Assembly (NCBI RefSeq): GCF_055900595.2
Contig: NZ_CM148325.1
Strand: one strand, 5' to 3'
Length of the DNA: 64,000 nucleotides
Shown: positions 558 to 23,500 of the stretch, in pieces
Layout: the number at the start of each line of letters is the position of its first letter
Numbering within the stretch: the stretch's first letter is position 1
Position numbers and translations under genes: made by a program
The notes under the pieces: generated by a model
Database searches by the model: none
Seen by the model: only the letters and a program-made list of their open reading frames with translations
What the model was told of the DNA's origin: nothing

Positions 558-1012
558 TGGAGTTAATGGTCGTTCACCCACATATTTTCTGGCTCAGTCT
601 CGGCGGGTTGCTGCTGGCTGCCGAAATGCTGGGCGGCAATGGTTATCTGTTGTGGAGCGGCGTGGCAGCGGTGATTACCGGCCTGGTGGTCTGGTTGCTG
701 CCGCTGGGCTGGGAGTGGCAAGGGGTGATGTTTGCCATCCTGACGCTGCTCGCTGCCTGGCTGTGGTGGAAATGGTTGTCGCGGCGGGTGCGCGAACAAA
801 AGCACAGCGACAGTCATTTAAACCAGCGCGGGCAGCAGTTGATTGGCCAACGTTTTGTTCTGGAATCTCCGCTGGTCAACGGGCGCGGTCATATGCGCGT
901 CGGTGACAGTTCATGGCCCGTCAGCGCCAGCGAGGATCTCAGTGCAGGTACGCATGTTGAGGTGATTGCGATAGAAGGGATAACGCTGATTATCCGTGCG
1001 GTCATCGCCTGA
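554..1012 (+). CDS. ybbJ: NfeD-like inner membrane protein YbbJ
   Basis: 152-aa ORF with N-terminal hydrophobic helices and C-terminal beta domain; start overlaps qmcA stop. Confidence 0.85.
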
Positions 1013-1094
1013 TGCGACGCTGGCGCGTCTTATCATGCCTACAAAATATGCCCGAATCGTAGGCCAGATAAGGCGCTTGCGCCGCATCCGGCAT
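1011..1094. repeat. REP/BIME-type extragenic palindromic element (two REP units in inverted orientation)
   Basis: gatgcgacgctggcgcgtcttatcatgcctac ... gtaggccagataaggcgcttgcgccgcatccggcat immediately after the ybbJ stop. Confidence 0.6.
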
Positions 1095-1114: not shown

Positions 1115-1477
1115 TTACTCTTCCCGGCCTTTACCCATACTTTTTTGGTCTTCATCCGGATAATGTTTTTTTAGATATTCCAGGACGTTTTTATTGACCT
1201 TGTGTTGCGTATACACCCACCCTTTCCAGTAATCAGGCTGGTCCAGGTAAACTTCTGGCGGAATGGTGAAATCAGAAAGCGTTAACCATTCGGCTAACAG
1301 ATCGGGGTTTCGTTTCTGGATCAACTGCAACAGCATAATCAGTGACATAGCTGAGGCAGGAGCCGTACTATCGCCACTTAAATATTTCCACACTGTTGAC
1401 CGGTTCGAACGAAAAAGGATGGGAAGCAATGCCCGGTCCAGATTCATTTCATTAAAAATCTTCTCAAATTCATTCAT
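1115..1477 (-). CDS. hypothetical 120-aa protein, divergent from the autotransporter gene; possible small regulator
   Basis: ORF with plausible composition; separated from the TAA gene by an AT-rich ~370-bp region. Confidence 0.45.
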   Translation of the reverse strand: MNEFEKIFNEMNLDRALLPILFRSNRSTVWKYLSGDSTAPASAMSLIMLLQLIQKRNPDLLAEWLTLSDFTIPPEVYLDQPDYWKGWVYTQHKVNKNVLEYLKKHYPDEDQKSMGKGREE

Positions 1478-1844
1478 TTAAATGTTCCTGCCTGGCGTAA
1501 ACCTCTTAAAAATTGAGATTTATCAAAGAAACGCATTTTAGCACACATCAGGAACCGCTTCACGTTTAGTCCAGAAACAGAATTTATTTCGCTTATCAAA
1601 ACAAGTCTTTACTCTTTTATACATTGAAAGAGCACGAAATAATTTCCTTTTTTATTTATATGAGAAACATTTTTTGTTTCTTATTGGTGGTGTTTACGCT
1701 TACACCAGACAAAAATGCGCTTTACATCACACAAATGGCGGCGTAGATTTCGATCATATTGCAACGTATTTTATTTCTTATTAACAATATTATTTGTTTC
1801 TTATAGAAACATTAATGCGACTTATTTTAAACAAGAGAAAATGA

Positions 1845-2861
1845 ATGAAAACTGTAAACGTAGCTTTACTGGCACTCATAATTTCAGCAACATCCAGCCC
1901 TATTGTTTTAGCTGGTGATACCATTGAAGCGGCGGCAACAGAGCTTTCAGCCATTAACTCTGGCATGTCGCAATCGGAGATTGAGCAGAAGATTACCCGC
2001 TTTTTAGAACGCACCGACAACAGCCCCGCTGCATATACCTATTTGACTGAACATCACTACATCCCTTCTGAAACACCTGATACCACTCAGACTCCCCCTG
2101 CCCAGACAGATCCTGACGCAGGACAAAAAACCGTTGCCGCTACAGGTGATGTACAGACAACCGCCCGTTATCAGAGCATGATCAACGCCCGACAGTCTGC
2201 GGTAACTGATGCCCAGCAAACGCAAATTACAGAGCAACAGGCGCAGATCGTAGCCACACAAAAAACGCTCGCCGCGACTGGAGATACGCAAAATACTGCT
2301 CATTATCAGGAGATGATTAATGCCAGACTGGCGGCTCAAAATGAGGCTAATCAGCGCACTACCACGGAACAAGGGCAGAAAATGAATGCACTGACAACCG
2401 ATGTGGCAGCACAACAGCAAAAAGAAAGGGCTCAATACGATAAACAAATGCAAAGTCTGGCGCAGAAGTCTGTCCAGGCACATGAGCAAATTGAAAGTCT
2501 GAGACAAGATTCCGCACAAACGCAACAACAGTTAACCAACACGCAAAAACGGGTCGCAGATAACAGCCAACAAATTAACACGCTCAATAACCATTTCGAT
2601 TCGCTGAAAAACGAAGTTGAGGACAATCGTAAAGAAGCCAATGCGGGAACTGCATCTGCCATCGCTATCGCCTCACAACCACAGGTGAAAACCGGTGACT
2701 TGATGATGGTGTCAGCGGGAGCGGGAACGTTCAACGGTGAATCTGCGGTGTCTGTAGGAACATCTTTTAATGCCGGAACGCATACGGTACTTAAAGCAGG
2801 TATTTCTGCGGATACACAATCTGATTTCGGTGCGGGTGTCGGCGTGGGATATTCGTTCTAA
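1845..2861 (+). CDS. short trimeric autotransporter adhesin (signal peptide, Q-rich coiled-coil stalk with tandem ~40-aa repeats, YadA-like C-terminal membrane anchor)
   Basis: N-terminal signal peptide MKTVNVALLALIISATSSPIVLA; C-terminus ...ASAIAIASQPQ...GDLMMVSAGAGTFNGESAVSVGTSF...GAGVGVGYSF matches the YadA-type anchor pattern. Confidence 0.75.
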   Translation: MKTVNVALLALIISATSSPIVLAGDTIEAAATELSAINSGMSQSEIEQKITRFLERTDNSPAAYTYLTEHHYIPSETPDTTQTPPAQTDPDAGQKTVAATGDVQTTARYQSMINARQSAVTDAQQTQITEQQAQIVATQKTLAATGDTQNTAHYQEMINARLAAQNEANQRTTTEQGQKMNALTTDVAAQQQKERAQYDKQMQSLAQKSVQAHEQIESLRQDSAQTQQQLTNTQKRVADNSQQINTLNNHFDSLKNEVEDNRKEANAGTASAIAIASQPQVKTGDLMMVSAGAGTFNGESAVSVGTSFNAGTHTVLKAGISADTQSDFGAGVGVGYSF

Positions 2862-2914
2862 TTTTAACAGCAATTTCTTATTCGCAATTTTCCGCACATT
2901 ATTTAAGGTTAACA

Positions 2915-3337
2915 ATGATGAATAGCTCCATTAAATCGTTTTCCCTGCTGGCGGTTATATTACTGGCTGGCTGTAGTTCACCCACTTCCCGCATCGCAGA
3001 TTGCCAAGCGCAGGGAGTCAGTCATGACACCTGTTATCTCGCAGAACAACAGCGTCAGGCGGCTATTTTAAGTGCATCAGAAGCACAGGCATTTAAAAAT
3101 GCAGAAGCCGCACAACATGCCCAGGCCGCTAAAAAATCTATTTATAAAGGATTTGGCGTCACCTTCAGAATGAGCAGTAAGAACTTTGCTTATCTCAATG
3201 ATTCATTATGTGCCATAGATGAAGATAATGCCGATGCCACGGTTTATCAGTCGGGTCTGTATAACGTCATTGTTTATCATCACACAGGAAAAGTCGCCTT
3301 AATGAAAGAAGGCCAGTTTGTGGGTTATTTAAAATGA
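2915..3337 (+). CDS. putative lipoprotein (lipobox LLAGC), unknown function
   Basis: signal peptide plus LAGC lipobox; stop overlaps start of next ORF. Confidence 0.55.
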   Translation: MMNSSIKSFSLLAVILLAGCSSPTSRIADCQAQGVSHDTCYLAEQQRQAAILSASEAQAFKNAEAAQHAQAAKKSIYKGFGVTFRMSSKNFAYLNDSLCAIDEDNADATVYQSGLYNVIVYHHTGKVALMKEGQFVGYLK

Positions 3338-3528
3338 AACTCACGCTTATACATATTATGATTATTGGCGCTTTTATCTTTGCATTCTTGCAAGTGGTAT
3401 TATTAGCCTCCCTGGTTCACGCTGTGAATGTTAACAATGAAATCCAGGAAGGCTTATTTCAATCGGGGCGCATAATGGTAGAAAGTTTGCAGCATATTCT
3501 TTCGGTGCAAACGGGGATTAATGGGTAA
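3334..3528 (+). CDS. small hydrophobic membrane protein (64 aa), translationally coupled to upstream lipoprotein gene
   Basis: ATGA overlap with preceding gene; one clear TM helix (IMIIGAFIFAFLQVVLLASLV). Confidence 0.4.
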   Translation: MKLTLIHIMIIGAFIFAFLQVVLLASLVHAVNVNNEIQEGLFQSGRIMVESLQHILSVQTGING

Positions 3529-3616
3529 GGATACCGTTACCATTTCCAGAGCAATAGTCACCAGCGTAATTTTCTGGCACAGTTCAGGGAACTGAAATTT
3601 TGGCTAAGGAGTAGCC

Positions 3617-4840
3617 ATGCTTTTTCCCTGTCGAAAACCTGAAGTACGTCTACTGAATAATACCGCTGCAGGCGTCATTTTTTCGGTGAAGTCCGGGAAA
3701 GGATTTCTGTGTCAGTGTGTGATTTACGATCCGCACCCTTATGGGCTTATCCGTTCGCTCTGCTGGCAGGATGTCCCGTTAATACGTTTCTGGTCCGAGG
3801 CTGGCTGCCCCACCTGTGCGGAATTTGTCTACAGCGGTTTTGCGGATGATGAACAGGGAGCCGCCCGGTTTTTGTCTGCTCTCGAAAACTGGAATCGCCC
3901 GTGGTCTGGCATGACGGACGCTTTTGCCGCGCTGACACCGCTGTTCTCATGCATGGCTGATGGCTATTATCTGCTCGAAGATCGTGAACTTTACCCGACG
4001 GATGGCAACGGGCATTTCTTTTGGGCGGCAACGGACCATAGCGCCAGTAATCCGGCGACCGTTGCCGTCTGGGATCCTGAATATTGCTATTTCAGTGACA
4101 CCGCCCCCTGTTTTCTTCTACCCGGCCAGCCGCCATCACATTTTAATCCTGAGCGTACGACGTTTTATCGCAATAAACCGGACGCCCCCGCTCTGGCCTG
4201 GTATCTCCCTGATTCCTATCTCTGCGTTCTGCTCGACGGACACCATAAAGCAACAGCCGCCGCGCTGGAAGGGCGACCGCTCAAAACACTGGTGCTCAGC
4301 ACGGCAACCCATTTTAATGATGAGCAACAAACCCTGGTATTTCCTGGCGGAGAATGTCTGCACAAAACAGAGCTGCTGTGTCACGTTCCCAAACTCACTG
4401 AATGGAAAACATTACCGCCCAACGCATGGGAGAGTTTCGGCCCTGATAAGCACATCAGCCCATCCGAAACCTGGTCAGAAGAGTTGCAGCAGAGCGTCAG
4501 CCGGTACCCTTCACTGGATCAAGCCTGGCAAATTGTTGAGGCCGGGAATTTGAGCGAAGCTCGTATTAAGCGCATGATCCAACAAGGTTTGGAGGGGGAT
4601 GAAAAGGCTGATGTTATTTTGCAGGCACTGTTTTCCACACACTCGCCGCTTTTTGTTGACTTTGCTCGATTCGTTATCAGCCATCCGGCATACGCCATTT
4701 ATCGCCCTCTCACCTTCCGGTTGATGGCGCAAAACCGAACGCCGCAAGCAGATGCCTTTTTTCTGGATTTTGCCATCAACGATGACGGCGAACGTCCGGA
4801 GTTGACGAAAATAATGGACGACTATTTCCGTATGCCTTAA
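3617..4840 (+). CDS. hypothetical 407-aa protein, Cys-rich N-terminal part, no family recognised
   Basis: long uninterrupted ORF with RBS (aaggag) upstream; stop codon directly abuts the cueR stop. Confidence 0.6.
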   Translation: MLFPCRKPEVRLLNNTAAGVIFSVKSGKGFLCQCVIYDPHPYGLIRSLCWQDVPLIRFWSEAGCPTCAEFVYSGFADDEQGAARFLSALENWNRPWSGMTDAFAALTPLFSCMADGYYLLEDRELYPTDGNGHFFWAATDHSASNPATVAVWDPEYCYFSDTAPCFLLPGQPPSHFNPERTTFYRNKPDAPALAWYLPDSYLCVLLDGHHKATAAALEGRPLKTLVLSTATHFNDEQQTLVFPGGECLHKTELLCHVPKLTEWKTLPPNAWESFGPDKHISPSETWSEELQQSVSRYPSLDQAWQIVEAGNLSEARIKRMIQQGLEGDEKADVILQALFSTHSPLFVDFARFVISHPAYAIYRPLTFRLMAQNRTPQADAFFLDFAINDDGERPELTKIMDDYFRMP

Positions 4841-5248
4841 TTACCCCGCCCGATGATGACAGCAGCCAGAGAGATTTTCGATAATCGGGCAGTCGGCGCT
4901 GTCATCGCCAGGGCAGGCATTCGCCAGCGCCAGTAGCTGGTCGCGCATGGATTGCAGCTCCTCAATGTGTCGTTCGATCTCCGCCACTTTCTCCAGGGTG
5001 CGCCGTTTTACATCGGCGCTGTGACGCTGCGGGTCGTTAAACAGATTCACCAGTTCGCCGCTCTCTTCCAGGTTAAAGCCCACCTGGCGCGCCTGGCGCA
5101 GTAAGGTCAGTTCGTTGAGATGCTGCTGCGTGTAGGTTCGATAACCATTTTCGCTGCGCATCGGCGGCGTCACCAGCCCCTTTTCTTCATAGAAGCGAAT
5201 GGCTTTGCTGGTCAGGCCGGTAATTTTTGCTACATCGCTAATGTTCAT
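4841..5248 (-). CDS. cueR: MerR-family copper-responsive regulator CueR
   Basis: 135-aa translation [26 protein letters not shown]...[24 protein letters not shown] recognised as E. coli CueR. Confidence 0.95.
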
Positions 5249-6420
5249 CGTTCGCGCAACGCCTCCTGTGCTTTGTTAAAGGGTTTCAACAGATAATCCA
5301 GCACGCTTTTTTTGCCAGTGCGGATATCGACCGTCGCCACCATACCGGGAAATATCGGAAACTGCTGTTTGCTTTTATTTTCCAGATGGTTGCTGAAAGT
5401 GCGAATGTACACCCGATAGTAATAAACATCGCGCCGCACTTCATCCTGTACAGTGTCCGGTGAAATCACCGCCACTTCCCCTGGCAGGCCGCCGTAGATG
5501 GAGTAATCGTAAGCGGTTATTTTCACCAGCGATTTTTGCCCCGGATGGATAAACGCCACATCGCGGGGGGAGATTTTTGCCTCGATCAACAGTTGCTCAT
5601 CCAGCGGCACGATAGTCATGAGTTTACCACCGGGGGCGATGACGCCGCCAACCGTGGTGACGTCAATGTCCTGAACAATGCCTCGCACCGGCGCAGTAAA
5701 GTTGAGCCGGGTGAGAGAATCTTCCCGCCCGCGGATCACCGAACGCTGGGTTTCCACTTCCGCATTGGCTTTCGCTAACTCTTCGCGCGCTTGTACGTAG
5801 TATTGCGTACGCACGTCGCTAAGTTTGTTTTCCAGTTCATTGGCCTGGCGTTGCAGGCGCAGCACTTCAACGCTGCTCGCCGCCCCCTGTTTCACCAGCG
5901 GCTGGGTCATCGCCAGTTCGCGGTTGACCAGGCTAATCCCCTGCGTCAGCCCGGTGGTGGCTTTGTTCAACCCGTCGCGGCGAGTGTTATATAACGCCGT
6001 TTCCGACTCGATAAGTTCGGGGAATTTATTCAGTTCGTCAGGGAAGACCAGCGGTTTATTGCTCACTTCTGCCCGCAGCCGCGCCGAGGTTGCCAGCGCC
6101 GCATACAGCCGCGACATCGCTTCCTGGACGTCGGATTCCGTTTTGGTGCGGTTAAGCTGCGCCAGCGGCTGCCCCTGTTCGACAATATCGCCAACCTTCA
6201 CGTCGAGATGATACAAAATCCCGCCTTCCAGCGACTGCACCACCTGTTCGCGTCCAGAAGGTTCTACCGTGCCGCTGCCGGTGGTGACTTCATCAAGCTG
6301 GAAGTACCACGCCCAGCCGAGAAAACAGAGCAGCATCACAGCGGTAACGCGTACCGCCAGCGCCGAACGCGGCAAGCGGGGTTCAGTCAGGCCACGGTTG
6401 TATTGCAGTTGTCCGTTCAT
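5245..6420 (-). CDS. type I secretion membrane fusion protein (HlyD/LapC family periplasmic adaptor)
   Basis: 391 aa; N-terminal TM anchor, coiled-coil and beta-barrel/lipoyl motifs typical of HlyD family; overlaps ABC gene start and cueR start. Confidence 0.9.
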
Positions 6421-8579
6421 GCAGCAGACCCCTTATTCTTCTCCTGCAACACCACCCGTCGCGCCGTGGGTTCGCTCTGTTCACGCAAAATGGCCTCTTT
6501 CGCGCCATCCATCACAATCCGCCCCTGATCCATCACGATAATGCGGTCCACCAGTTGCAGCATCGCCGTGCGGTGAGTGGCGATGACCAGCGTGCGATGC
6601 CCAATCCACTGTTTTAGTTGTTCAATTAAATACGCTTCCGCCATTTCATCCAGCGAGGCGCTGGGTTCATCGAGCAGGACGATGTTGGGTTGAGAGATGA
6701 GGAGCCGCGCCAGCAGCAGCGTTTGCCGCTGGCCGCCAGAAAGACCAAATCCCCCTTCCTGAATCATGTAGTTAAGGCCGTTTTTCTGCTTCTGCACAAA
6801 CGGCAGCGCCCCGCTGAGGGTTAATGCGCGTTCGATATCTTCATCGCTGGCCTCCGGCATCCCCATGGTGAGGTTTTCCCGCAGCGAACCGAAGAACAGT
6901 CGCCCGGTCTGGCTGAGCAGCCCCATGTCGCGACGCAGATCTGCCGGATCAAGCTGCCCGATGCTGATGTTATCCAGCAGCACCTGCCCCTGCTGGGCGA
7001 TACGCATTCCGGCGAGCATTTGCAGTAGCGTTGATTTACCCGCGCCGTTGCGCCCGAGAATGGCGATTTTCTCACCGGCCTGAATGTTGAGTTTGCCAAT
7101 CGCTACATCGGCAATTTTCTCTTCTTCGTCGTAATAAAACACCGCGTTGCTAAACTGATAATTACCGTGCAGTACCGCTTTATGCACCAGTTTGCCGTGC
7201 TCCGGCTGATCCACCGGGCGCTTCATCAGTTCATCAAGCCCGTTACGCGCCACTTTCGCCTGCTGCCAGCGCGAAAGCACGCCGGATATCTGCGACAGCG
7301 GCGCGATGGTGCGCGAAGCCAGAATCGTCGTTCCGACCAGCGCGCCGGTGGTCATGTCGCCGCTCATCACCATAAAGCAGCCCACCAACAGCACCACCAC
7401 ATAGACGATGGATTGCACTTCCTGCGTCCAGGTGAGCAGCAGCCCGGTGAGAAAACGTTGCTTCATGCTGATAGATGACGCCACGTCGTTGGTGTGATTC
7501 CACTGATTCTGGAAACGCTGTTCAGCACGCAGCAGTTTAATGTCTTCAATCGACTGCACGGCCTCGACAAGCGTAGCGTTGCGCACTGCCGATTCGCGCA
7601 TCCCTTCGTTCGCCAGCCGCGCCAGCGGGCGTTGTACCAGCAGGCCGGGGATCACCAGCAACGGCAGCGCCAGCAAAACAACCAGCACCAGCCAGCCGCC
7701 GATCATCCACAGAATAAAAACAAACAGCAGGAAGAATGGCAGATCCGCTACCGCGCCAATGGTGGTGGAGGTGATCAGCTCCCGCACCGATTCCAGTTCG
7801 CGGATCTGTGAGATAAACGATCCGGTGGATTTCGATCGCACGTTATTTTTCAGCCGTAATGCGTGACCAAACACGCGATCCGAAATACGCAGATCCGCCC
7901 GTTTGCCGATCACATCGGAAAGGTGTGTGCGCACCATGCGCATACAGAACTCAAACAGGATCGCCATCATCACCCCGGCGAACAGCACCCATAGCGTCGG
8001 GTAGGACTGCGCCGGAACAACGCGGTCGTAAACCTGCATCGAGAAAATCATCGCCGCCAGCGCCAGCACGTTCGCCACCAGCGAGGCCAGCATAATATCG
8101 CCGTAGCGCCGCCAGTCTTTTAGCGAAAGATTCCAGAACCAGTTAGCCTGATACGGGCGAATGTAGTCATCCACCCGCGCATCGGGAATGGCGCTGAGCG
8201 GTCGTAGCAGCGCCAGTTCAACGATTTTGTCTTCTATATCCGTGACGTTTAGCGTAGTTTCCAGCCCTTCGTCACCGCTGAACTGAACGCTGATATTGTC
8301 GTGATTGTCGCGGCGGGTGATAACGCCAATCTGTTGATTATCAAACACCGCGATCAGCGGCAGCCGCCAGGGGTTAAGCGAATCAGCGGAAAATTCTACC
8401 AGCCGTAGCCCCATTCCCAGTTGCCGCGCCATGTCGGTGAGCAACTCTTCCCGCTTGCTGTCGCGCTCCCAGTTGACGGTCGCGCGCACATTCTCCTGGG
8501 AAAAATCGAGGCGGTAATAGCGCGCCACGGCGATCATCGCCTCCAGCCAGGCTTCCACGGACTGGGCATTTTTTTTCAT
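6417..8579 (-). CDS. type I secretion ABC transporter with N-terminal C39-like domain (HlyB/LapB type)
   Basis: 720 aa; Walker A GRNGAGKST, ABC signature LSGGQRQ, Walker B LLDEPSASLD, six-TM core, N-terminal peptidase-like domain. Confidence 0.9.
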   Translation of the reverse strand: MKKNAQSVEAWLEAMIAVARYYRLDFSQENVRATVNWERDSKREELLTDMARQLGMGLRLVEFSADSLNPWRLPLIAVFDNQQIGVITRRDNHDNISVQFSGDEGLETTLNVTDIEDKIVELALLRPLSAIPDARVDDYIRPYQANWFWNLSLKDWRRYGDIMLASLVANVLALAAMIFSMQVYDRVVPAQSYPTLWVLFAGVMMAILFEFCMRMVRTHLSDVIGKRADLRISDRVFGHALRLKNNVRSKSTGSFISQIRELESVRELITSTTIGAVADLPFFLLFVFILWMIGGWLVLVVLLALPLLVIPGLLVQRPLARLANEGMRESAVRNATLVEAVQSIEDIKLLRAEQRFQNQWNHTNDVASSISMKQRFLTGLLLTWTQEVQSIVYVVVLLVGCFMVMSGDMTTGALVGTTILASRTIAPLSQISGVLSRWQQAKVARNGLDELMKRPVDQPEHGKLVHKAVLHGNYQFSNAVFYYDEEEKIADVAIGKLNIQAGEKIAILGRNGAGKSTLLQMLAGMRIAQQGQVLLDNISIGQLDPADLRRDMGLLSQTGRLFFGSLRENLTMGMPEASDEDIERALTLSGALPFVQKQKNGLNYMIQEGGFGLSGGQRQTLLLARLLISQPNIVLLDEPSASLDEMAEAYLIEQLKQWIGHRTLVIATHRTAMLQLVDRIIVMDQGRIVMDGAKEAILREQSEPTARRVVLQEKNKGSAA

Positions 8580-8582
8580 TCT

Positions 8583-11500
8583 CTACACCACCATCAACTG
8601 ATGATTCGCCAGTAAAGTGGCGAGGTCGGTGTGCACGCCCGTCAGCGTGACCATGTTAGTTGTCGCAAAGCCGCCGCCCGTGCCGTCACGGTCGATCTGC
8701 ACGATGGTGTCGCTGCCGCTCTGGGTAACTTTGACAAAATCACCGATGTTTCCGGCCTGGGCATCCAGCGTTGCCACACCGTTGACATAGCTGGCTTTGC
8801 CGTTTCCGGTGTAGCCGCTGCCCTGTAACAGTTCACGAATATCAATGCGATCGGTGTCGGCGGTGCCTTCCCAGGTGCCTACCGTAAAGCCATTCACCAC
8901 GTCCGAACCGTTGCCCCCGGCGGCGTCACTGGCGTTAAGCAGTTTATATAGCAAGGTGTCGTGACCGCCGTTACCGATGTTGAGCGTGTCGTTGCCGCCG
9001 CGCCCTTCCAGTTGGTTATCGCCGCTGCTGCCGGTCAGAGTGTCATTAAAATTCGAGCCGGAAATCCCTTCGATATTGGTAAATGTCGAGGTATTAAAAC
9101 CGGTGGCCTGTGCGGTGGTAACGCTTAAGTTAGCGGTGACGCCCACCGTTGAGAGACGGAAATCGACCACGTCCATGCCGCCGTTCGCCAGCCAGGTTCC
9201 TGTGCCGGAGCTGTACACCCAGCCGCCGGAACCGTCGTAGGTGTCGGTGCCTGCGGTGGCGAAGAAGGTGTCGTTATAGCCAGTGCCGACAAACTTGCCG
9301 TTGTTGCTCGCCGTACCCGCTTCAGCACTGAGATCGTAAGCGTGAGTAGCATCGGTGGCCTGTAAGCCACCCCAGCTGGTATTCACCGTCTGGTCGATAT
9401 TGCTGGCGGTGGTGCCAGTGGATTTGATCAGCACCGCGTTGTAGGTTTCTCCAGCGTTAAGTCCGTAGAAGTTGACCAGCGCCGAGGTGTCGTTAACGCC
9501 CATCCCCGACTGCGGGTTGATGATTTGTGTCGCCACCAGCACGCCCGCCGAGTTGTACAGCTTCACGGTATTGCCGTAATAGACATTAATACCGTTGGGA
9601 TCGGTGATACGCAGGTGCAACGAGGTGCCGTAGCTCACCGTGTTAGTGTTACGGATGAGGAACACGCTGCCCGACTGTTTGGTTACCAGCACATCCACCG
9701 CGCCGTCCCAGTCGTAGTCCATTGCCGCCACGCCGCTGGTGGTGCCGCTCTGGCTGCCACCGAGTGCCGATTGTGTCCAGTTACTGGCGTTGCTGACGTT
9801 AGTATAAAGATACGACTGTCCGGTCTGGGCGATACGGGCGATGTCCATTAACCCGTCATGATCCCAGTCGACGGCCAGGCTGAATTGACTGGCGTAGGTG
9901 GTTGCCGTCGCGCCGACCGCCACCGGGCTACCCAGCACGCCGTTGGTGTTGAATAACAGCGAGCCGTAGTTAGCTCTTCCCTGGCTGGCGGGCAGGAAGA
10001 GGTCCATATCGCCGTCACCATCGAAATCGGCCCATGTCATGGAAACGGATGTCGAGTTTCCCCCCGAGCCAGGACTACTGAGGAAAGTATTGACGGTGTT
10101 TTGTCCCCAGACGAAGGTGCCATTGCCCTGGCTTATCAACGATGAGAGGGTGAAGTTGTTGTTCAGGTTGAAAGTGTGCTGAACCAGATCAATTCTGCCG
10201 TCATTATTAAGATCGACACCGGAACCTTCGTTGAGTGACAAATAACCTGTCACCGCCCCACCGACCGTAGCACTCCCCCCGTTATTAGCGGTGGTGGAGT
10301 TGCCTGTCAGGGTGCCGGCGTTGTTCCACAGGAAAGTGTTGGAGTCCGGCCCCCCGGCGTCGCCAATCCAGAAATCAAGATAACCGTCGCCCTCTTTATC
10401 GAACGCCACAATCGAGCCATACCACGTCAGGGTGCCAACGTTCACCTGGATGGCGCTGGAAAACGTACCGTCGCCGTTATTAGTAAAGCCGTTGATATAC
10501 CCCGTGCCGTAGTCATCACGGGTAATAAACAGATCGCCCGTACCGTTACGGTTGTAATCGGCGATGGAGCTGGTGGCATAGTTGTTGCCACTTTGCACCA
10601 GCGTCAGGGCGGTTTTCGACCAGGTGAGCGGATCGGTGGATTGCATAATTTGCTGGTTGGCCAGCACCGTCCACATCCCGTGGTTGTCGAGTCCATAAGT
10701 CAGCCCCCAGGCGGTGGATTTGCTGGTGGTGGTCCAGGTCGGTGTGTAATCTATCGCCGCGTTAACCGTTACCGTGCCAGTGCTGACGTTGGCGGTGTTG
10801 CCATTGCCCGCCGAGCTTTTCACCTGCGCGGTGACGTTATAGGCGGTCGCAGACGCCGCCAGCGCGTCGGTATCCGGCAGTTGTACATACCAGGTGTTGT
10901 GCGCCGGATCGACGACCACCGCACCGCCTGGCTGCGAAGTGTAAGTTTTGCCGTTGATCACCACTTCAACATACTGTCCGCTGGCGAGTGCCGCGGTGAG
11001 TACGCCGCTGATAATCGGCGTGGTATCGCGTGTGGTTTGATTGGTGATTTGCGCAAGCGTGGTCGGAATAGAGGTATCGACCGTCAGGACAAAATCACTG
11101 GAGGAGGTGATATTCCCGGCCAGATCCACCACTCGCGCACTGTAGGTGTACGCGCCGCTGACCAGACCACTGTCGCTGTAAGTCCAGTTCAGCGCGCCGA
11201 CCATCGTTACCGCACCTAACAGCAGACCGTTACGGTAGAGGTAAACGACTTCACCGCTGGCAAGCGGCGCAGAGAGCACGCCGTTGAGCAACGGCGTGGT
11301 GTCGTCGGTGGCCTGCGAATTGCTAAACGTCCCCTGCCGCTGCCCGACATCATCGGTATACGACACAATGGTCGGCGTGGCGGTGGGGTTAATCGTATCG
11401 ACCACCACCGTTTTCGATACCACCGGGCCTGTATTTCCCGCCAGATCCAGCACCCGTACCTGATAAACGTAGCTGCCGTCGGTCAGCGTGCGGCTGTCAG

Positions 11501-14500
11501 TGTAAGTCCACTGCGTACCGTTGGTGGTGAGCGTGGTCCAGGTCGCGCCGCCATCGAGGCTAATCTGCGCCACTTCGCCGCTGGCAAGCCCCGCCCCCAG
11601 CGAACCGGTCAGCGTGAGCGTGGTATCGCTGGTGATAAAGTCGGTGGCCGAACTCCCCGTATCGGTGCTGATGCTGGCGATGGTGAGCACCTGCGCCGGG
11701 TTAACGGTGTCAATCTGCGCCGACTGGCTGCCGGTTGCGCCAACGTTGCCCGCTAAATCAACCACCCGCACCTGCCAGGTGGTGGTGCCGTTGGTCAGCG
11801 TACGCCCGTCCACATATGTCCAGTTCAGACCGTCTGCGGCAACGGTCACGTTCACCCAGGTTGCGCCGTTGTCGGTACTGATTTGCGCGAACTCATTAGC
11901 GCCGAGCGCCGCGCCCAGCACGCCGCGCACGGTAAGCGTGGTGTCGCTGGTAATAAAATCGCTGCTGCTGGCTCCGGTGTCATCGCTGATACCGGTAATA
12001 GTGATGCTTTTCGCCGCTTCCGGGCTGATGGTGTCAACCACCACGTTTTGCGTCGCGGTCTGCCCGACATTCCCCGCCAGATCCACCACCCGCACCGTGT
12101 AATTCCATGTGCCGTCGGTGAGCGTGCGACCATCGGCATAGCTCCAGCTGGTGCCGATAACGGTTAAGGTGGCCCAGGTAACGCCACCATCAAGGCTGAT
12201 TTGCGCCCGTTCATCTGCCGCCAGCGCCGCGCCGAGCGTCCCGCGCACGGTCAACGTAGTGTCACGGGTCACAAAATCGCTGCTGCTTAACCCGGTGTCA
12301 TCGCTGATGCCCGCAATGACGATGGTTTTGCTCGCCAGCGGCGCGGTGGTATCCACGGTGACTATCTGGCTGGCGGTCGCGCCGATATTTCCGGCGGTGT
12401 CGATCACCCGTACCTGATAGTTGTAGTTACCGTCGGTCAGCGTGCGCCCGTCAAGATAAGTCCAGGTTAATCCATTTACCGCCAGATTCTGCCAGGTGGT
12501 GCCGCCATCGATACTGATTTGCGCGAACTCACCGGCAGAAAGTGCCGAGCCCAGCGTGCCGCTTACCGCAAGCGTCGTGTCGCTGGTGACAAAATCATTA
12601 GTAATCAGACCTGTATCGGTGGTGATCGCGCTAATGGCGATGGTTTTCACCGCGGGATCTGGCGCAGTAGTGTCGATCACCACATTCTGGCTATCAGTCG
12701 CCCCGACGTTGCCCGCCGCATCAATCACCCGCACCTGATAGAGATAGTTACCATCGGTCAGCGTGCGGCTGTCGTTATAGCGCCAGGTCGTGCCAGTAAC
12801 GGTAAGCGTGCTCCAGGTTACACCGCCGTCGATACTGATTTGCGCCGTCTCGTTACTGGCAAGCGCGGCGGTGAGTGAGCCGTTGACCACCACCGGGCTG
12901 ACGCTGGTGATAAAGTCGCTGGCGCTAAGGCCAGTGTCGGCTTGCAGGGAATCAATATTAATGCCCATCGCCGGGGCGCTGAGATCGACGGTAATGGTGT
13001 GATTGCTGCTACCGATGTTGCCAATGGCGTTGCTCACCGAAGCGTTAATCACATAGGCATTGCCGTCCGCCAGCGCGGTGACATCGGCGCTGCCGAGGGT
13101 GTAGCTCCAGCTACCACCGGTCTGCACCGTAGTGGTGTAGGTTTTACCGTTTAAGGTCAGAGTCAGCGTCTGCCCGACTGGGGCGGTGGTGGTGCCGCTG
13201 ATCACCAAAGACGCGCCGTGTTCCGCCGCGTTCACCACATCATCGCCCGCAAGGGTGTTAATGGTGACGGTGGGGACGTCGCCATTCAACGTCACGCCAC
13301 GGCTGGCGCTACCGGGGTTTCCGGCCTGATCGCTGACCGTCGCGCTGATGGTGTAGCTGCCGTCGCTTAATCCGGCAAACTGCTGCGCCGGAATAAACAC
13401 CGACCAGCTTCCGCCACTGCCGACCGTTGCGGTCCAGTTTTGTCCGTTAAAGGTGACGCTCACCGTCTGGCCCGCTTCGGCGGTGGTGGTGCCGCTGATG
13501 GTCTGCCCGGCAAGCTGCTCGGCGTTGTTGATAATATCGTCACCCGCCACCGTGGCGATGGTGACCGTTGGCGCAACGGTATCGACGGTCAGGGCGTGCG
13601 TGGTTTGACCGGGGTTACCGGCACGATCGTTCACGCTGGCGGTAATGGTCTGCGCACCCTGCCCGAGCGATGCCAGATCCGCCGCAGGCACGTTCAGCGC
13701 CCAAGTGCCATTGGCGGCAACCGTGGCGGTATAGGTTTTGCCGCCAAAGGTGACGGTGACCGTTTGCCCCACTTCCGCGCTGGTCGAGCCGTTAAGGGTT
13801 AACGGCTGCTGCTGTTCGGCGGCGTTGAGTCGATCGTCCGTCGAAACGGTGTTAATGCTGATAATCGGCGCGGTGAGATCCACCGCCACGCTGCGCGAGG
13901 CCGTGGCGCTGTTTCCGGCGCTGTCCTGCGCGGAGGCGCTAACCGTATAGCTGGTGCCATCCGCAAGCGCCGCAACGTCTGCCGCCGGCACGTTCACGCT
14001 CCAGCTCCCGTTGCTCTGAATGGTGGCGCTGTAGCCTTTGCCGTTAAGTAACACGGTCACCACCGTACCTGCGGCAAAGTTCGTTCCGGTGCCGCTCAGG
14101 GTCAGCGCACTGCCTGCTTCGGCGGCGTTAATCACGTCATCGCTGGCAACGGTGTTGATGCTGATTGCCACCGCCGTTAAATCGACGGTGAACGGATGGC
14201 TGACGCTGACCGGGTTTCCGGCGCTGCTCTGGCCTGTCACGTCAACGGTTAACGCCCCCGCAGGCCAGGCGCTGACGTTTGCCGCCGGAATGCCAACGCT
14301 CCAGCTTCCATCCGCCTGTACCGTGGTGGAATACGCCACACTGTTGATGGTAACCGTCAGCACAGCACCTGCATTCAGGCCGCTACTGCCGCCGGTGATC
14401 ACCAGCGCCTGACCATGCTCGATGCTGTTGACGATATCATCGCCCGCCACGGTATCCACCCGCAGCCCTGGCAGATTGGCATCAATGGTGATATCCCGCG

Positions 14501-17500
14501 TGCCGCTACCCGTATTGCCATTCGCGTTGGTAACCGAGGCGGTAATGGTCAAATCACCATTGCCCAACGCCTGGAGATCGGCTGCCGGAACGCTGACGCT
14601 CCAGCTTAAGTTGCCCTGTACCGTAGCGGTGTAAGTGTTACCGCCCAGCGTCACGGTAACTGTATCGCCAGCGGCGGCGCGGGTCACCCCCCCGCTGATG
14701 GTTTGATCGGCCCCGGCTTCGGCGGCGTTGATAATATCGTCGTCCGCCACGGTATTGATGGTGACGCCTGGCAGGCCGCTGTCGACCAGTAAATTCGCCT
14801 GGCTGCTGGCGGTGTTGCCTGCCGCACTGGTGGCGCTGGCGCTGACGGTATAGTTAGCCTGACCTAAGGCCGCCAGATCGCTCACCGGCACGGTTAAGGT
14901 CCAGTTGCCTGCTGCGTCGGTGGTAGCGCTGTAGTTATGACCGTTGAGCGTGACGGTAACCTGTGCGCCGGTCGCCAGCCCCGTACTGCTACCGCTGATG
15001 GTCAACGGCTGGCCTTTTTCATCGGCGTTCAGAACGTTATCGCTGCTGATGGCGTTAAAGGTAATGGTCGGCAGCCCGGTATTGACCGTCACCTGATGGC
15101 TGGCGTTGCCGCTGTTTCCGGCGGCGTCAGTGACGCTGGCGTTAATGGTCACCGTGCCGTTTGCCAGTGCCGAAACAACGCTTGCCGGGACGCCGACGCT
15201 CCAGTTGCCGCTGGCATCCAGCACCGTGGTGAAGGTATTTGTGCCGATAGTCACCGTCACGGTGTTACCGGTTGCCGCACCAGTGGCAGAGCCGCTGATA
15301 ATCTGCGCCTGGGCGTGTTCCGTCGCGTTGATCACATCATCACCCGCGACAGTGTTGATGGTGACGACCGGAACGGAAGTATCCACCGTCAGGTTGTGGT
15401 TAACCGAGGTCGGGTTTCCGGCCTTGTCGCTCACCGCCGCGCTGACGGTGTAGTTGCTGGCGGTCAGAGCGCTTAAGTCGGCTGGCGGTACGCTGATACT
15501 CCAGCTGCCGTCCGTTTGTACCGTGCCAGTATAGTTTGCGCCATTGAGCGTGACGGTCACCGTCTGCCCGGCTTCCGCCGTGCTGCTGCCGGTGATGGTC
15601 AGCGCCGCACCCGCTTCGGCGGCGTTAAGAATATCGTCGCCCGCAATGGTGTTAATGGTCACCGTTGGCGCGGTGGCATCGACGCTGTAAGCGTGGGTAG
15701 TGGTGGCACTGTTGCCGTTAACGTTGCTGACGCTGGCCTGCGCGCTGGCATCACCATCACGCAGGGCTGCCATATCCGCCGCCGGAACCGTGGTGCTCCA
15801 GGAACCATTCGCCGCGACACTTGCAGTATAGGTTTTACCGCCAAAGGTCACGGTGACCGTTTGCCCGGCCTCCACGCCAGAGGTGCTGCCGGAGAGCGTT
15901 AATGCCGCGCCTTTTTCAGCGGCGTTAATCACATCATCGGTGGTAATGGCGTTGATGCTGACCGCCACCGCCGAGAGATCGACAGTCACTGGATGCGTAA
16001 CGCTGACCGAGTTTCCGGCGGTAGTGCTGCCGCTCGCCGTAATCGTCACCGCCCCCGCAGGCCAGGCGCTGACATCCACCGCCGGAACGCCGACGCTCCA
16101 GGTGCCATCCGCCAGCACTGCCGCAACATAGGTTTGCCCGTTAATGGTCAGCGTGACATTGCTACCCACCGCCAGCCCAGAGCTGCTGCCGGTAATCACC
16201 AGCGCCTGACCGTGCTCGATAATGTTGACCACATCATCGCCCGCCACGGTATCGACCCGCAGACCGGGGAGATTCGCGTCTATGGTGATTTCGCGCGTGC
16301 CGTTACCGGTATTGCCTACGCTGTTCGTTACCGAAGCCGAAATGCTCAGCTCTCCGTTGCCCAACGCCTGTAACGCCGAAGCCGGAACATCGACACTCCA
16401 GCTTAAGTCTGCCTGTACCGTAGCGGTGTAAGTCGCCCCACCGAGCGTCACGGTCACCGTGTCGCCCGCCGCGGCCCTCGTGACCTGCCCGCTGATAGTT
16501 TGAGTTGCCCCCGCTTCGGCGGCGTTAATAATATCGTCCGTTGCCACAACGTTAATGGTGACGCCCGGTAGCGCGGTATTAACCTGCACGTTATGGCTGG
16601 CGGAACCGCTATTGCCATCAACATCGGTTGCGGCGGCAGTCACCGTATAAGTCGCTTCACCGAGCGTACCAACCGCAGACGCCGGAACAGTCACGCTCCA
16701 GTTCCCGGAAGCATCGGCAGTGGTGGTGTAATTTTGCCCGTTGAGCGTAACAGTTACCTGCGTGCCCGCAGGCTGGTTGCTGGTGCCGGAAATCGACAGA
16801 TCCGCGCCTTTCTCCGTGGCGTTGATGATGTCATCGACGGCGATGGTGTTAATGGCGAGTATCGGTGCACCGAGCGCCACGCTGACAGTGTGCGAGGCCG
16901 TGCCGCTGTTGCCTGCGGAGTCGGTAACCGTGGCGGTAATGGTCACATCGCCCTGGGCCAGCGCGGAAATCACGCTGGCAGGCACGCCGATGCTCCAGTT
17001 GCCGTTGGCGTCCAGCACGGTGGTGTAGGTGGTCGTGCCAATCGTCACGGAAACCGTGTTACCCGTCGTCGCGCCCGTTGCCGAGCCGCTGATAATCTGC
17101 GCCTGAGCATGTTCCGTGGCGTTAATGATGTCATCGCCTGCTACCGTGTTAATGGTGACGACCGGAGCGGCAAGATCCACCGTCAGGTTATGCGTCGCCG
17201 AGGTTGGGTTGCCCGCTTTGTCGCTGACCGCCGCGCTCACCGTATAGGGGCTGGCGGTAAGGTCGGCTAAATCGCCAGTTGGTACGCTGACGCTCCAGCT
17301 CCCGTCTGCCTGCACGTTGCCGCTGTAATTGATGCCGTTTAGCGTCACGGTCACTGTCTGCCCGGCTTCTGCGGTGCTGGTGCCGCTGATGGTCAGCGCC
17401 GATCCCGCTTCGGCGGCATTAAGAATATCGTCGCTGGCGATGGTGTTGATAGTAACGGAGGGCGCGGTGGCATCGACGCTATAAACATGCGTTGCCTGGG

Positions 17501-20500
17501 CGTTGTTACCCGCGACGTTGCTGACGCTGGCCTGGATGTTTGCTGCGCCATCCGGCAAGGTTGCGAGATCGGCTGCTGGGATCGTCAGCCCCCAGGTATT
17601 ATCCGCGGCAACCGTGGTGGTGTAGCTTTTGCCACCGAAAATAACGGTAATGGTCTGCCCCGCTTCCACGCCGGAGGTGGTGCCAGAAAGCTGCAAATCA
17701 GTGCCTTTTTCGGCGGCGTTTATCACATCGTCAGTGGAGAGTGTATTGATGGTAATCGCCACGGCAGCGAGATTGACCGTGACCGGATGGCTAATGCTGG
17801 TTGTGGTTCCGGCGGTATTAGTGCCAGAGACGGCAATATTGACCGTCCCCGTAGGCCAGTTAGCCACGTCCGCTGCCGGAACGCCGACGCTCCAGGTGCC
17901 ATCGGCGAGTACCGTTGCGCCGTAGGTGACGCTATTGATAACCACCGTCAACGCCGCGCCCGCCGCCAGTCCGGTACTACTGCCGGTGACCACCAGTGCC
18001 TGAGTGTACTCAATGCTGTTAATCACATCATCGCCTGCCACGGTATCAACCCGCAGACCTGGCAAGTTGGCATCTATCACGATGTCGTGCGTTGCGGTGC
18101 CGGTATTATTTGCGGAATTGGTCACCGAGGCGCTGATGGTCAGTTCACTGTTACCCAGCGCCTGCAAATCTGCCGCAGGCACGCTGACGCTCCAGCTTAA
18201 ATCTGGCTGCACGGTGGCAATGTATTGATTACCGCCGAGCGTGACAGTGACCGAATCTCCTGCTGCTGCCGTCCCCGTAACCTGTCCGCTGAGGGTCTGG
18301 TTAACGGCGATTTCAGCGGCGTTGATAATGTCATCGCCCGCCACGGTATTAATAATCACCCCAGGCAGGAGCGATTCGACATTCACCGTATGGGTGGTGC
18401 TGCCGTTGTTGCCCGCGCTGTCGGTGGCACTGGCGCTAATCTGGTATACCGCCTCGCCCAGTGCGCCGACCGCCGAAGCAGGCACGGTAACGCTCCAGTT
18501 GCCGGAGCCGTCGGTGGTGGCGCTGTACGCCAGGCCGTTCAACATCACGGTGACCGTAGTGCCTGCCGCCAGGCCGCTGGAGACGCCGCTGATGATCAGA
18601 TCCTGGGTTTTCTCGGTATTGTTAATGATGTCATCGCCGGAGACGGTGTTGATGGTCAGCGTCGGGCCGCTGAGATCAACGGTCACATCGTGAGTCGTGC
18701 TGTCGCTGTTGCCCGCGCGATCGCTCAGGCTGGCGGTGATGGTCTGGCTACCGGTTGCCAGTGCCGTGACATCCGCCGCCGGAATACCCACACTCCAGTT
18801 ACCGGAGGCGTCCAGCGTTGTGGTGTAGTTTTTACCGTTCAGATTAACCGTGACCACATCGCCCGCCGCCGCGCCCGTACTGGTGCCGCTCACCACCAGC
18901 GCCTGACCATGTTCGATGGCGTTGATAATGTCATCGCCCGCGACGGTATTAATGGTGAGATCCGGCGCGGTAACGTCCACCGCCAGTGCATGATCCGCGC
19001 TTGCCGGGTTGCCCGCTTTGTCGCTCACCGTGGCGGTCACGGTATAACTGCTGGCGGTTAATCCGCTTAAATCTGTCGCCGGAACGTTCACACTCCAGGT
19101 GCCATCGGCCTGGACGGTAGTCTGGTACGTGTTGTTATTGAGCGTGACAGTCAGCGTCTGCCCGGCCTGCGCCGTGGTGGTGCCGCTGATAGTTATCCCC
19201 GCGCCCGCTTCACTCACGTTGAGAATATCGTCGCTGGCGATGGTGTTGATGGTCACAAGCGGCGCGGTGGCATCGACGCTGTACGCGCGATCGGCCTGGG
19301 CGCTGTTGCCGTTAATGTTGCTGACACTCGCCTGCACGTTGCCCGCGCCGTCCGGCAACGCAGCGAGATCGGCAGGCGGCACATTCACCGTCCAGCTACC
19401 GTTGGCTTCCACAGTGGTGGTGTAATTTTTGCCGCCAAAGGTGACGGTCACCGTCTGCCCGGCTTCTACACCGCTGGTACTGCCGCTCACCACCAGCGTT
19501 TCGCCTTTTTCGACGGCATTGATCACATCATCGCCGGAGAGAGTGTTAATGGTTATGGCGACCGCCGCCAGATCGACGGTAACCGGATGGGTAATGGTGG
19601 AGGTTGTTCCGGCGCTGTTGGTGCCGCTTACCGTGATATCCACCGTACCCGCAGGCCAGTTGCTGACGTCTGCCGCCGGAACGCCGAGGTTCCATGTACC
19701 GTCAGCTAACACCGTGGCAGCGTAAGTGACGTTGTTAATCACGACCGTTAATGCCGTTCCTGCCGTCAGCCCGGTGCTGCTACCTGTTATCACCAGCGCC
19801 TGATTGTGCTCAATGCTGTTAATAACATCATCGCCCGCTACGGTATCGACCCGCAAACCAGGCAGATTGGCATCGATCGTAATATCGCGCGAGCCGCTGC
19901 CGCTGTTGCCCACGACGTTGGTGACCGAGGCGTTAACTGTCAGGTCGCCGTTACCAAGCGCCTGAATATCCGCCGCCGGAACGCTGACACTCCAGCTTAA
20001 ATTAGCCTGCACCGTAGCGGTGTAGGTGTTGCCGCCCAGCGTGACGGTGACCGTATCGCCCGCCGCCGCGCCCGTCACCTGCCCGCTGATGGTTTGCACA
20101 CTGCCCGCTTCGGCGGCATTAATAATGTCATCGGTTGCCACTGCGTTAATGGTAACGCCAGGTAAGGCGCTGTTGACCAGCACATTATGGCTGACGGAAT
20201 TACTGTTGCCTGCCGTGTCGGTAACGCTCGCCGTTACCGTGTAGTTGGCTTCACCCAACGCGCTAGCTGCCGAGGCTGGCACCGTGGCGCTCCAGTTGCC
20301 ACTGCTATCGGTGGTAGCGGTGTAATTTTGTCCGTTCAGCGTCACTGTAATGGTGGTGCCTGCGGGCTGATTACTGGTGCCAGTAATTTGCAGATCCGCG
20401 CCTTTTTCTGTGGCGTTAATCACATCATCGGTGGCGATAGTATTGATACCTATCGTTGGCGAGGTGAGATTCACGGTGACCGTGCGGCTGGCATCATCGC

Positions 20501-23500
20501 TGTTGCCTGCCGCATCGGTAATGGCCGCAGTGATGGTTTGCGGGCCGCTGCCCAGCGCAGTGACGTCTGCTGCCGGAACGCCGACGCTCCAGTTGCCGGA
20601 GGCGTCCAGCGTGGTGGTATAAGTTTTACTGTTTAACGTGATGGTGATGACATCGCCCGCTTCGCCGCCAGTGCTGGAACCGGAGATCACCAGCGCCTGT
20701 CCGTGTTCGGCGGCGTTAATGATGTCATCGCCGGAGACGGTGTTAATGGTTAAAACTGGCACGGTGAGATCCACCGCCAGGCCGTGAGTGGCGGTCGCCG
20801 GGTTACCCGCTTTGTCGCTTACCGAGGCGCTGACCGTGTACGGGCTGGCGGTCAGATTGCTGAGATCCGCCGTCGGCACGCTGACGCTCCAGCTACCGCC
20901 CGCCTGAACGGTGCCGATGTAAGCCACACCATTAAGCGTGACGGTTACCGTTTGCCCCGCTTCGGCGGTGCTGGTGCCGCTGATGGTTAACGGATTGCCC
21001 GCCTCAGCGGCGTTAAGAATATCGTCTGTGGCAATAGTGTTAATGGCAAGCGTCGGTGCCGTGGCGTCGACGCTGTAGGCGTGGGTTGCCGAAGCCGTGT
21101 TGCCGTTAATATTGCTGACACTGGCCTGTACCGTGGCGTCGCCGTCACGTAACGCGCTGAGATCGGCGGTGGGTAGAGTAGTTGTCCAGCTACCATCGCC
21201 CGCTACGGTAGCAATATAGGTTTTGCCGCCAAAGGTGACGGTGACGGTTTGCCCCGCTTCCACGCCGGAAGTGCTGCCGGAAAGGGTTAACTCTGCCCCT
21301 TTTTCAGCGGCATTAATCACATCGTCGCCGGAAACGGTGTTAATGGAGATCGCCACCGCCGCCAGATCGACGGTGACCGGATGGGTGATGGTGGAGGTTG
21401 TTCCGGCAGTGTTAGTGCCGCTTACCGTGATATCCACCGTCCCCGCAGGCCAGTTGCCCACGTCTGCCGCCGGAACGCCAACGCTCCATGTGCCATCGGC
21501 TAATACTGTCGCAGCGTAAGTGACCGTGTTAATCACCACTGTCAGCGCCGCGCCCGCCGCCAGCCCGCTGCTGCTACCGGTTATCACCAGTGCCTGAGCG
21601 TGCTCGATGCTGTTGACCACATCATCGCCCGCCACGGTATCGACGCGCAGACCCGGCAGGTTGGCGTCTATCACAATATCGCGCGAACCGCTGCCAGTAT
21701 TACCCACGCCGTTGGTTACCGAGGCATTAACTGTCAGTTCGCCATTACCGATAGCCTGAATATCCGCCGCCGGAACGTCCACGCTCCAGCTAAAATTGCC
21801 CTGCACGGTAGCGGTGTAGGTTTTCCCGCCAATCGCCACGGTAACCGTATCGCCCGCCGCCGCACCCGTCACCTGGCCGCTGATGGTCTGCGCCACGCCC
21901 GATTCCGCCGCGTTAATAATATCGTCGGTCGCCACCGGATTAATGGTGACACCCGGCAGCGCGGTATTCACCTGCACGTTATGGCTGGCGGAATTGCTGT
22001 TGCCCGCGCTGTCGGTGACGTTCGCCGTCACCGTGTAACTGGCGTCGCCCAGCGCACCGACGGCAGAGGCTGGCACCGTGGTGCTCCAGTTGCCTGCGGC
22101 GTCCGTCGTGGCGGAGTAATTTTGCCCGTTAAGCGTCACCGTAATTGTGGTGCCTGTTGGCTGATTACTGGTGCCGGAAATTTGCAGATCCGCGCCTTTT
22201 TCCGTGGCATTAATCACGTCATCGCTGGCAATGGGGTTGATGCCAATGGTCGGCGCGGTAAGGTTAACGGTGACCGTGTGCGTCTCGTTGTCGCTGTTGC
22301 CAGCCACATCGGTAACGGTCGCCGTCACGGTTTGCGGGCCGCTGCCCAGCGCAGAGACATCCGCAGCCGGAACGCCGACGCTCCAGTTTCCGGAGGCGTC
22401 CAGCGTGGTAGTGTAGGTTTTATTGTTTAGCGTGACGCTGACGATATCGCCCGCCTCCCCGCCAGTGCTGGAACCGGAAATCACCAGCGCCTGCCCGTGT
22501 TCGGCGGCGTTAATAATATCATCGCCCGCAATGGTGTTAATGGTCAGTACCGGAACGGTGAGATCCACCGCCAGATTATGCGTGGTGCTCGCCGGGTTGC
22601 CCGCTTTGTCATTGACCGTCGCCGTCAGGGTATGGCTGCCATCGGTCAATGCCTCAAGATCTGCCGCCGGAATAGTAATACTCCAGCTGCCGTCCGCCTG
22701 CACTGTTGCCTGATAGGTCTGCACGGTCGGGCTGTTAAGCGTTACCGTAACAATCTGCCCCGCTTCAGCGGTGGTGCTGCCGCTCACCGTCACGCCCGCA
22801 TCGGCTTCGCTGGCGTTGACGATATTGTCGCTGGCGACGGTATTGATAATGATGGTTGGCGCGCTGCTATCGACGCTGTAGTTATGCACCGCCGAGGCGC
22901 TATTGCCATTGATATTGCTGACGCTGGCCTGCGCGGAGGCGCTGCCCTCAGGTAATGCTGCCAGATCGGCGGCAGGAACGGTGGCAGTCCAGCTACCATC
23001 GCTCGCCACGCTGGCGGTGTAATTTTTCCCGCCAAAGTTGACGGTGACGGTTTGTCCTGGCTCTACATTAGTGGTGGTGCCGGAAAGAGTTAAATCAGCG
23101 CCTTTTTCTGCGGCGTTAATCACGTCGTCCGTGGCGATGGTGTTGATTGTGATCGCCGCCGGAGTGAGATCCACCGTTACCGGATGCGTAATGCTCACCG
23201 GATTTCCGGCGCTACTTTCCCCGGATACAGCAATAGACACTGTTCCCGCAGGCCAGGCGCTAACCTGCGCCGCCGTGACGCCCACGCTCCAGCTACCATC
23301 GACCTGCACCGCAGTGGTGTATTCCACATTATTAATCGTAACTGTAAGCGGGGTGCCTTCTGCCAGCCCCGAGCTGCTGCCGGTGACCACCAGCGCCTGC
23401 CCGTGTTCGATGATATTGACCACATCATCGCCCGCTACCGTATCGACCCGCAGACCGGGCAGATTGGCGTCGATGGTGATATCCCGCGTGCCGCTGCCGG

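Follow-up and report, generated by a model that had tools for sequence, protein, structure and literature searches.

The 407-aa ORF located at 3617-4840 (plus strand) of the window, i.e. of the whole 64,000-nucleotide stretch analysed here, is a real, intact gene, hereafter called X, and its product was predicted to be built around a highly divergent version of the fold shared by ParB and sulfiredoxin (ParB/Srx). The reading favoured here, with a probability of roughly 55 %, sees X as an enzyme or switch of this fold that binds an NTP and works alone, and in which a conserved D-G-H-H-[K/R] motif would lie at the phosphates.

The window belongs to an E. coli chromosome and shares 99.9 % identity over 1.9 kb with several complete genomes. 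The ORF was retrieved where it had first been noted, and RefSeq contains the same CDS, which ends with TAA at 4838-4840 and is annotated by PGAP as 'hypothetical protein' (WP_032302595.1); the CDS ends of both X and cueR were identical in identical strains. A Shine-Dalgarno sequence (AAGGAG, 3606-3611, plus strand), read from the sequence, precedes the ATG by 5 nt, and at least 90 % of the homologues start level with the initial methionine of X in the alignment. Ratios of dN/dS between intact copies of X ranged from 0.15 to 0.21, compared with 0.02 for cueR and 0.05 for ybbJ; X is thus under purifying selection, though less constrained than these two genes. Its status as a real gene follows from the good ribosome binding site, from homologues, those of E. 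coli and of Clostridia included, that could be aligned over their whole length, and from these ratios. The CDS and its place in the family of Salmonella STM0660 are backed by RefSeq, the homologues, dN/dS and the STM0660 primers (see below).

Among 5426 complete E. coli genomes, 270 contained at least 80 % of the gene, 695 displayed a remnant and 4461 had none. Most sampled remnants covered ~58-60 % of the gene; the one from strain G749, which was considered in detail, was annotated as frameshifted. This scarcity, together with the weaker constraint in comparison with neighbouring genes, could be taken to indicate that X is, in E. coli, a decaying leftover without present function and intact only in appearance. 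Such a view is quite unlikely: the copy of the window retains every conserved residue, intact E. coli alleles display a dN/dS of 0.21 and not about 1, and intact copies are also present in E. albertii, E. whittamii and the cryptic Escherichia clades.

The original prediction had stated that no family is recognisable in X, which held at the level of sequence but not at the level of structure, where the fold could be recognised in the model described below. X displayed no match to Pfam, NCBIfam or PADLOC, and a Pfam scan of 78 homologues and seven longer family members was equally negative. PDB sequences searched with X as a single sequence and with a family profile gave no relevant match, and the profile retrieved no ParB/Srx protein. 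Neither X nor any of the 78 homologues matched Pfam families ParBc (PF02195) and ParBc_2 (PF08857) at E-values up to 1. When an HMM of residues 160-236 was compared with human sulfiredoxin, the real protein ranked behind 292 out of 2000 shuffled versions of itself, and hhalign attributed a probability of 0.1 % to the match between the X family and sulfiredoxin. When 5.8 billion proteins were searched with the domain profile, only short fragments of the X family itself came back, and no relative with a Pfam annotation was among them. The remote-homology search initially recommended hence assigned X to no known family by sequence; no tie to the ParB or Srx families was found at this level, and the fold proposed here is a matter of predicted structure and motif position only.

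Structure prediction, also recommended initially, produced a confident three-part AlphaFold2 model from the family alignment (pLDDT 89.8, pTM 0.88), in which a beta domain at the N-terminus is followed by a mixed middle part containing the ParB/Srx-fold core and by a C-terminal bundle of nine helices. All features of X given hereafter are located on the plus strand. The N-terminal domain (residues 1-75, 3617-3841) is predicted to be six-stranded, and a structural match was sought for it and none was found. The core spans residues about 164-250 (4106-4366) and the C-terminal part is a predicted alpha-helical repeat of HEAT/VHS-like appearance (residues 268-405, 4418-4831). Comparison of the model with known structures uncovered the core fold common to N-terminal domains of ParB and to sulfiredoxin. 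Matches (PDB entry and score in parentheses) comprised the free serine kinase SerK (5x0b, 7.3), KorB (8qa8, 7.1), SbnI (5ujd, 6.8), sulfiredoxin (6ky4, 6.6; 1yzs, 6.0), PadC (6ryk, 5.8), Atu1540 (2hwj, 5.3), ParB of pNOB8 (5k5d, 4.8) and Spo0J (1vz0, 4.2). The protein is cytoplasmic; the transmembrane segments said to be missing were indeed not found, the highest Kyte-Doolittle mean over 19 residues being 1.25.

Conservation was assessed on an alignment of 78 family members. The most conserved stretch was YPTDGNGHFFW (residues 126-136, 3992-4024), in which F135 is invariant. Near the start of the core, a P-G-Q triplet (residues 169-171, 4121-4129), which is P-[TS]-Q in most homologues, displayed its proline (P169) in 72 and its glutamine (Q171) in 75 of the 78 members; it resembles what we take to be Box I of ParB. 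R180 and Y184 were conserved as well. The family stretch L-L-D-G-H-H-[K/R]-A-x-A-A-A corresponds to residues 205-216 and includes the D-G-H-H-K motif of X (4235-4249), of which G208, H209 and H210 occurred in all 78 members and D207 in 76, while position 211 was occupied by K in 66, by R in ten and by G in two. According to DSSP, the model displays a strand at 202-207 and a helix at 209-218, so that DGHH[K/R] is placed at their junction. The FGGCHR motif of sulfiredoxin, whose sequence was verified against PDB, is found at the equivalent strand-to-helix place, where ParB displays GERR. In our own reading of the model, DGHHK may superpose residue by residue on GGCHR and GERR.

Characterised proteins with the ParB/Srx fold bind a nucleoside triphosphate, which is used either as a switch (CTP in ParB, Noc, KorB and PadC) or for phosphotransfer (ATP or ADP in sulfiredoxin and in serine kinases SerK and SbnI). 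By extension, X would bind an NTP at the strand-to-helix D-G-H-H-[K/R] motif, with K/R211 and H210 probably contacting the phosphates and H209 occupying the place of the catalytic cysteine of sulfiredoxin and the catalytic glutamate of ParB. The CPTC beta domain (see below), the YPTDGNGHFFW loop and the C-terminal helical repeat may then serve in recognition of a substrate or partner. Besides the negative sequence searches, two observations speak against this nucleotide-binding reading: the phosphate-binding arginine is mostly a lysine in the X family, and a Box III-like motif was not seen.

The N-terminal third had been described as Cys-rich. Of the 12 cysteines of X, seven do fall within residues 1-136, but conservation is limited to C64 and C67, which form a CPTC motif (C64-P-T-C67, 3806-3817) and were present in 74 and 70 of the 78 members, respectively. 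Combined with the two invariant histidines H209 and H210, this pair could make up a Cys2His2-type site, and X could bind metal or act in redox chemistry, its place next to cueR and copA providing the link to copper homeostasis. These two genes accompany it in Escherichia, K. aerogenes, Superficieibacter and an Enterobacteriaceae metagenome assembly. This proposal appears unlikely. X and cueR are convergent and therefore do not share a promoter; no CueR-box-like dyad suggesting control by CueR was found upstream of X, the sole match in the window to the pattern that we take to be the CueR box lying elsewhere and at chance level. The Salmonella copy is located away from cueR, between rihA and hscC, and none of 124 flanking ORFs from other phyla suggested copper.

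The X family is unnamed, mostly composed of proteins from gut Clostridia and sporadic in Enterobacteriaceae. A search of 5.8 billion proteins yielded 114 relatives, most of which were 400-460 aa long and many of which could be aligned end to end. Searching 1.84 billion cluster representatives with a profile yielded 665 clusters at E-values up to 1e-3 and 277 at E-values up to 1e-30 (clusters being defined at 50 % identity), and relatives were present in 212 genomes when one genome per species was scanned (~100,000 genomes). They were chiefly found in Bacillota (Lachnospiraceae, Ruminococcus, Oscillospiraceae, Clostridium and Paenibacillus) and also in Deferribacteraceae. The scan also retrieved Saezia, Superficieibacter, an Enterobacteriaceae metagenome assembly and, within Escherichia, E. 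albertii, E. whittamii and cryptic clades; Klebsiella aerogenes and Salmonella carry the gene as well. The Salmonella homologue was identified as STM0660 by means of published primer sequences (PMC2137926), which matched both of its ends. The sole phenotype on record comes from a screen table, in which its deletion in Salmonella is listed with 'reduced swimming only' (PMC4219756).

Gene neighbourhoods were diverse. The 13 annotated contexts differed from one another, and a Pfam census of the 124 ORFs flanking X homologues at 69 non-enterobacterial loci displayed 136 families, the commonest of which occurred five times. A conserved partner gene was consequently rejected, as no Pfam family was found in more than five of these ORFs, and X would act alone, given that no neighbour is conserved. 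A mobile-element origin was rejected as well, since the family had no match in phages and its sole 'plasmid' match was a 2.1-Mb Fusobacterium record. One Firmicute homologue (L016, 5001-6275) is located inside a conjugative element, where it is surrounded by genes for TrbL, a coupling protein, a prepilin peptidase and Flp-pilus-type functions; a gene with an SMODS domain was found nearby.

These distributions also bear on two further views of the protein. According to the first, X is a non-catalytic adaptor or an immunity-like binder, in which the helical repeat is the active part and the ParB/Srx-like part a structural relic. This is rather improbable, as the strictly invariant residues lie in the ParB/Srx core and in the loop preceding it and not in the helical repeat, neither a toxin gene nor any other partner recurs beside family members, the PADLOC search was negative and the family is absent from plasmids and phages. 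According to the second, X acts on DNA like ParB, be it in partition, as a clamp sliding on DNA or as a 'ParB-like nuclease'. ParB, Noc, KorB and Spo0J are among the fold matches, a UniRef record designates one clostridial homologue as 'ParB-like nuclease domain protein' and one homologue is the above-mentioned inhabitant of a conjugative element. A role of this kind is nonetheless very improbable: none of the 78 members displayed a helix-turn-helix or another DNA-binding Pfam domain, no ParA-type family appeared among the commonest 25 Pfam families of the 124 flanking ORFs or was seen in the annotated contexts, X is chromosomal, and DGHHK replaces the arginine patch GERRxR of ParB. In particular, X as a canonical ParB partition protein was rejected for want of a helix-turn-helix or other Pfam domain and of a ParA-type family among the commonest 25 neighbour families or in the annotated contexts.

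Returning to the favoured NTP-binding reading, a more specific and distinctly speculative version of it would make X a stand-alone NTP-dependent enzyme for protein repair or modification, following a sulfiredoxin-like logic with His209 in place of the catalytic cysteine and the CPTC pair nearby, and serving membrane or cytosolic protein quality control. This version, to which we attach a low probability, is hinted at by the position of X after qmcA-ybbJ (an SPFH/NfeD pair) in Enterobacteriaceae, with a 4-nt overlap of the ybbJ stop and the X start in K. aerogenes, and by that of the Salmonella copy beside hscC and genes of the djlB/djlC type. In Salmonella, STM0660 (L002, 8001-16440) is flanked by rihA and hscC, an Hsp70 gene, and adjoins two pairs of DjlB-type and DUF1266 genes, a second context linked to protein quality control.

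In Enterobacteriaceae, X is ancestrally preceded by ybbJ (NfeD family, 554-1012 of the window, plus strand) and is located downstream of qmcA-ybbJ on the same strand. The spacing between the stop of ybbJ and the start of X was variable: both genes overlap by 4 nt in K. aerogenes and are separated by 35 nt in Superficieibacter electus, 54 nt in the Enterobacteriaceae metagenome contig, 83 nt in Superficieibacter sp./UBA5654 and 117 nt in E. coli FEX669. In K. aerogenes (L019, 3026-7145), genes for a 722-aa protein without Pfam match and a DUF3142 protein are found between X and cueR. As several genera share this place of X between ybbJ and cueR, the gene is ancestral at the locus and was lost repeatedly.

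One such loss may be visible in K-12. In its derivative RR1 (L007, 2100-2116; compare window 1000-1012 and 4826-4843), the TAA of ybbJ directly abuts the stop of cueR, and the last two codons of ybbJ differ, the protein ending with AVSS in K-12 and with AVIA in X-keeping strains. Judging from these sequences, the K-12 junction looks like the scar of a deletion with approximate breakpoints at the 3' ends of ybbJ and X, and deletion of the intervening gene X would explain the stop-to-stop contact of ybbJ and cueR in K-12. A REP-like palindrome (GCCAGATAAGGCG...CGCATCCGGC) is located just 3' of ybbJ in the window (1063-1092); this ybbJ-side element was also found in FEX669 and O157 and is absent from the K-12 junction.

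In the window, ybbJ and X are separated by an insert of 2.6 kb. It includes a module (1115-3528) encoding a 120-aa ORF (minus strand), a 338-aa trimeric autotransporter with YadA anchor, a 140-aa lipoprotein and a 64-aa membrane peptide. O157:H7, which lacks X, carries this ybbJ-side module as well. On the other side, upstream of cueR and on the minus strand (5245-27560), are genes for an HlyD-family type I secretion adaptor (5245-6420), an ABC permease/ATPase (6417-8579) and a 6325-aa adhesin with Ig-like repeats (8583-27560), the latter being annotated as frameshifted in a strain with 99.9 % identity. The stop of the adaptor gene overlaps the start codon of cueR (ATGA, 5245-5248). K-12 (L007, 2518-2615) has kept ~115 bp of the 3' end of the adaptor gene as a pseudogene directly upstream of cueR, and its cueR upstream region is therefore the remnant of a lost secretion operon. 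That X might belong to these adhesin islands was rejected, as FEX669 displays ybbJ-X-cueR without a YadA-like module or type I secretion genes; O157:H7 has both adhesin modules without X.

The gene for CueR, a Cu(I)-responsive regulator of the MerR family (135 aa, 4841-5248, minus strand), was identified by RefSeq and NCBIfam, with 308.6 bits against the CueR equivalog NF007590 (cut-off 244) and 207.5 bits against TIGR02044 (cut-off 147.4). As originally read from the sequence, the stops of X (TAA) and cueR (TTA on the plus strand) make up TAATTA at 4838-4843 and leave no base between both genes. FEX669 and four other Escherichia species displayed the same zero-nucleotide gap at the cueR 3' end, as did K-12, where ybbJ is the partner, while X overlaps cueR by 4 or 38 nt in Superficieibacter and relatives. 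No canonical intrinsic terminator was found at the junction within about 360 nt on either strand; the nearest terminator-like sites were located ~365 nt downstream on the plus strand (5205-5223, inside cueR) and ~580 nt downstream on the minus strand. A stable hairpin with a perfect inverted repeat of 9 nt is predicted on the X transcript, shortly after the stop of X and inside the 3' coding region of cueR (4855-4906, plus strand). Its fold z-score is -3.1 and none of 200 shuffled sequences was as stable. No U-tract follows it, and it is not a canonical terminator.

From the missing intergenic bases and the missing canonical terminator at the junction, it follows that the convergent transcripts overlap or end inside each other's gene, in support of what had been anticipated from the zero-nucleotide gap. 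For K-12, cueR-ybbJ is listed among the convergent excludons that were observed in 50 % or more of the E. coli RNA-seq samples analysed (PMC12288877). The two arrangements have the cueR 3' end in common, and in both it meets a convergent gene without an intervening base; they differ in the partner, which is X here and ybbJ in K-12, the overlap seen by RNA-seq being reported for the K-12 pair (PMC12288877). By analogy, the X and cueR transcripts most likely overlap as well. Because the ybbJ stop of K-12 abuts that of cueR alike and cueR-ybbJ is a published excludon, the junction is not special to X: stop-to-stop contact is an old, ordinary and ancestral property of the cueR 3' end.

The X family appears to constitute an additional branch of the ParB/Srx (ParB-CTPase) fold that was missed by sequence models, and it is present in gut Clostridia as well as in pathogens (Salmonella STM0660, E. 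albertii and some E. coli). Should X bind and use a nucleotide, it would be a new solo enzyme or switch to characterise. None of these findings is expected to surprise a specialist.

Among known systems, the ParB-CTPase switches (ParB/Spo0J, Noc, KorB and PadC) have the same core fold as that predicted for X, and P-[TS]-Q and D-G-H-H-[K/R] of X occupy the places expected for Box I and Box II of ParB. In contrast to these switches, X displays no helix-turn-helix, dimerisation domain, GERRxR arginine patch or Box III, and it is not found on mobile elements. It lacks a ParA partner, like the 'orphan' ParB-like proteins described in a 2025 survey of the ParB-CTPase fold (PMC12704722). That survey began from Pfam PF02195 (PMC12704722); as this model does not match X, the family falls outside it. 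In comparison with sulfiredoxin (1yzs, 6ky4), X is three times larger and the catalytic cysteine of F-G-G-C-H-R is replaced by His209 in all 78 members. SerK (5x0b), SbnI (5ujd), the uncharacterised Atu1540 (2hwj) and PF0380 (1vk1) are among the closest known proteins. The likeness of X to SerK and SbnI is one of fold (~79 residues at 13 % identity), with no detectable similarity in sequence, and its gene contexts are not those of cysteine or siderophore (staphyloferrin) biosynthesis, unlike theirs. X further differs from this group by its extra N-terminal CPTC beta domain and its conserved YPTDGNGHFFW loop, and the combination of CPTC beta domain, DGHH[K/R] core and helical repeat predicted for the family is a new architecture.
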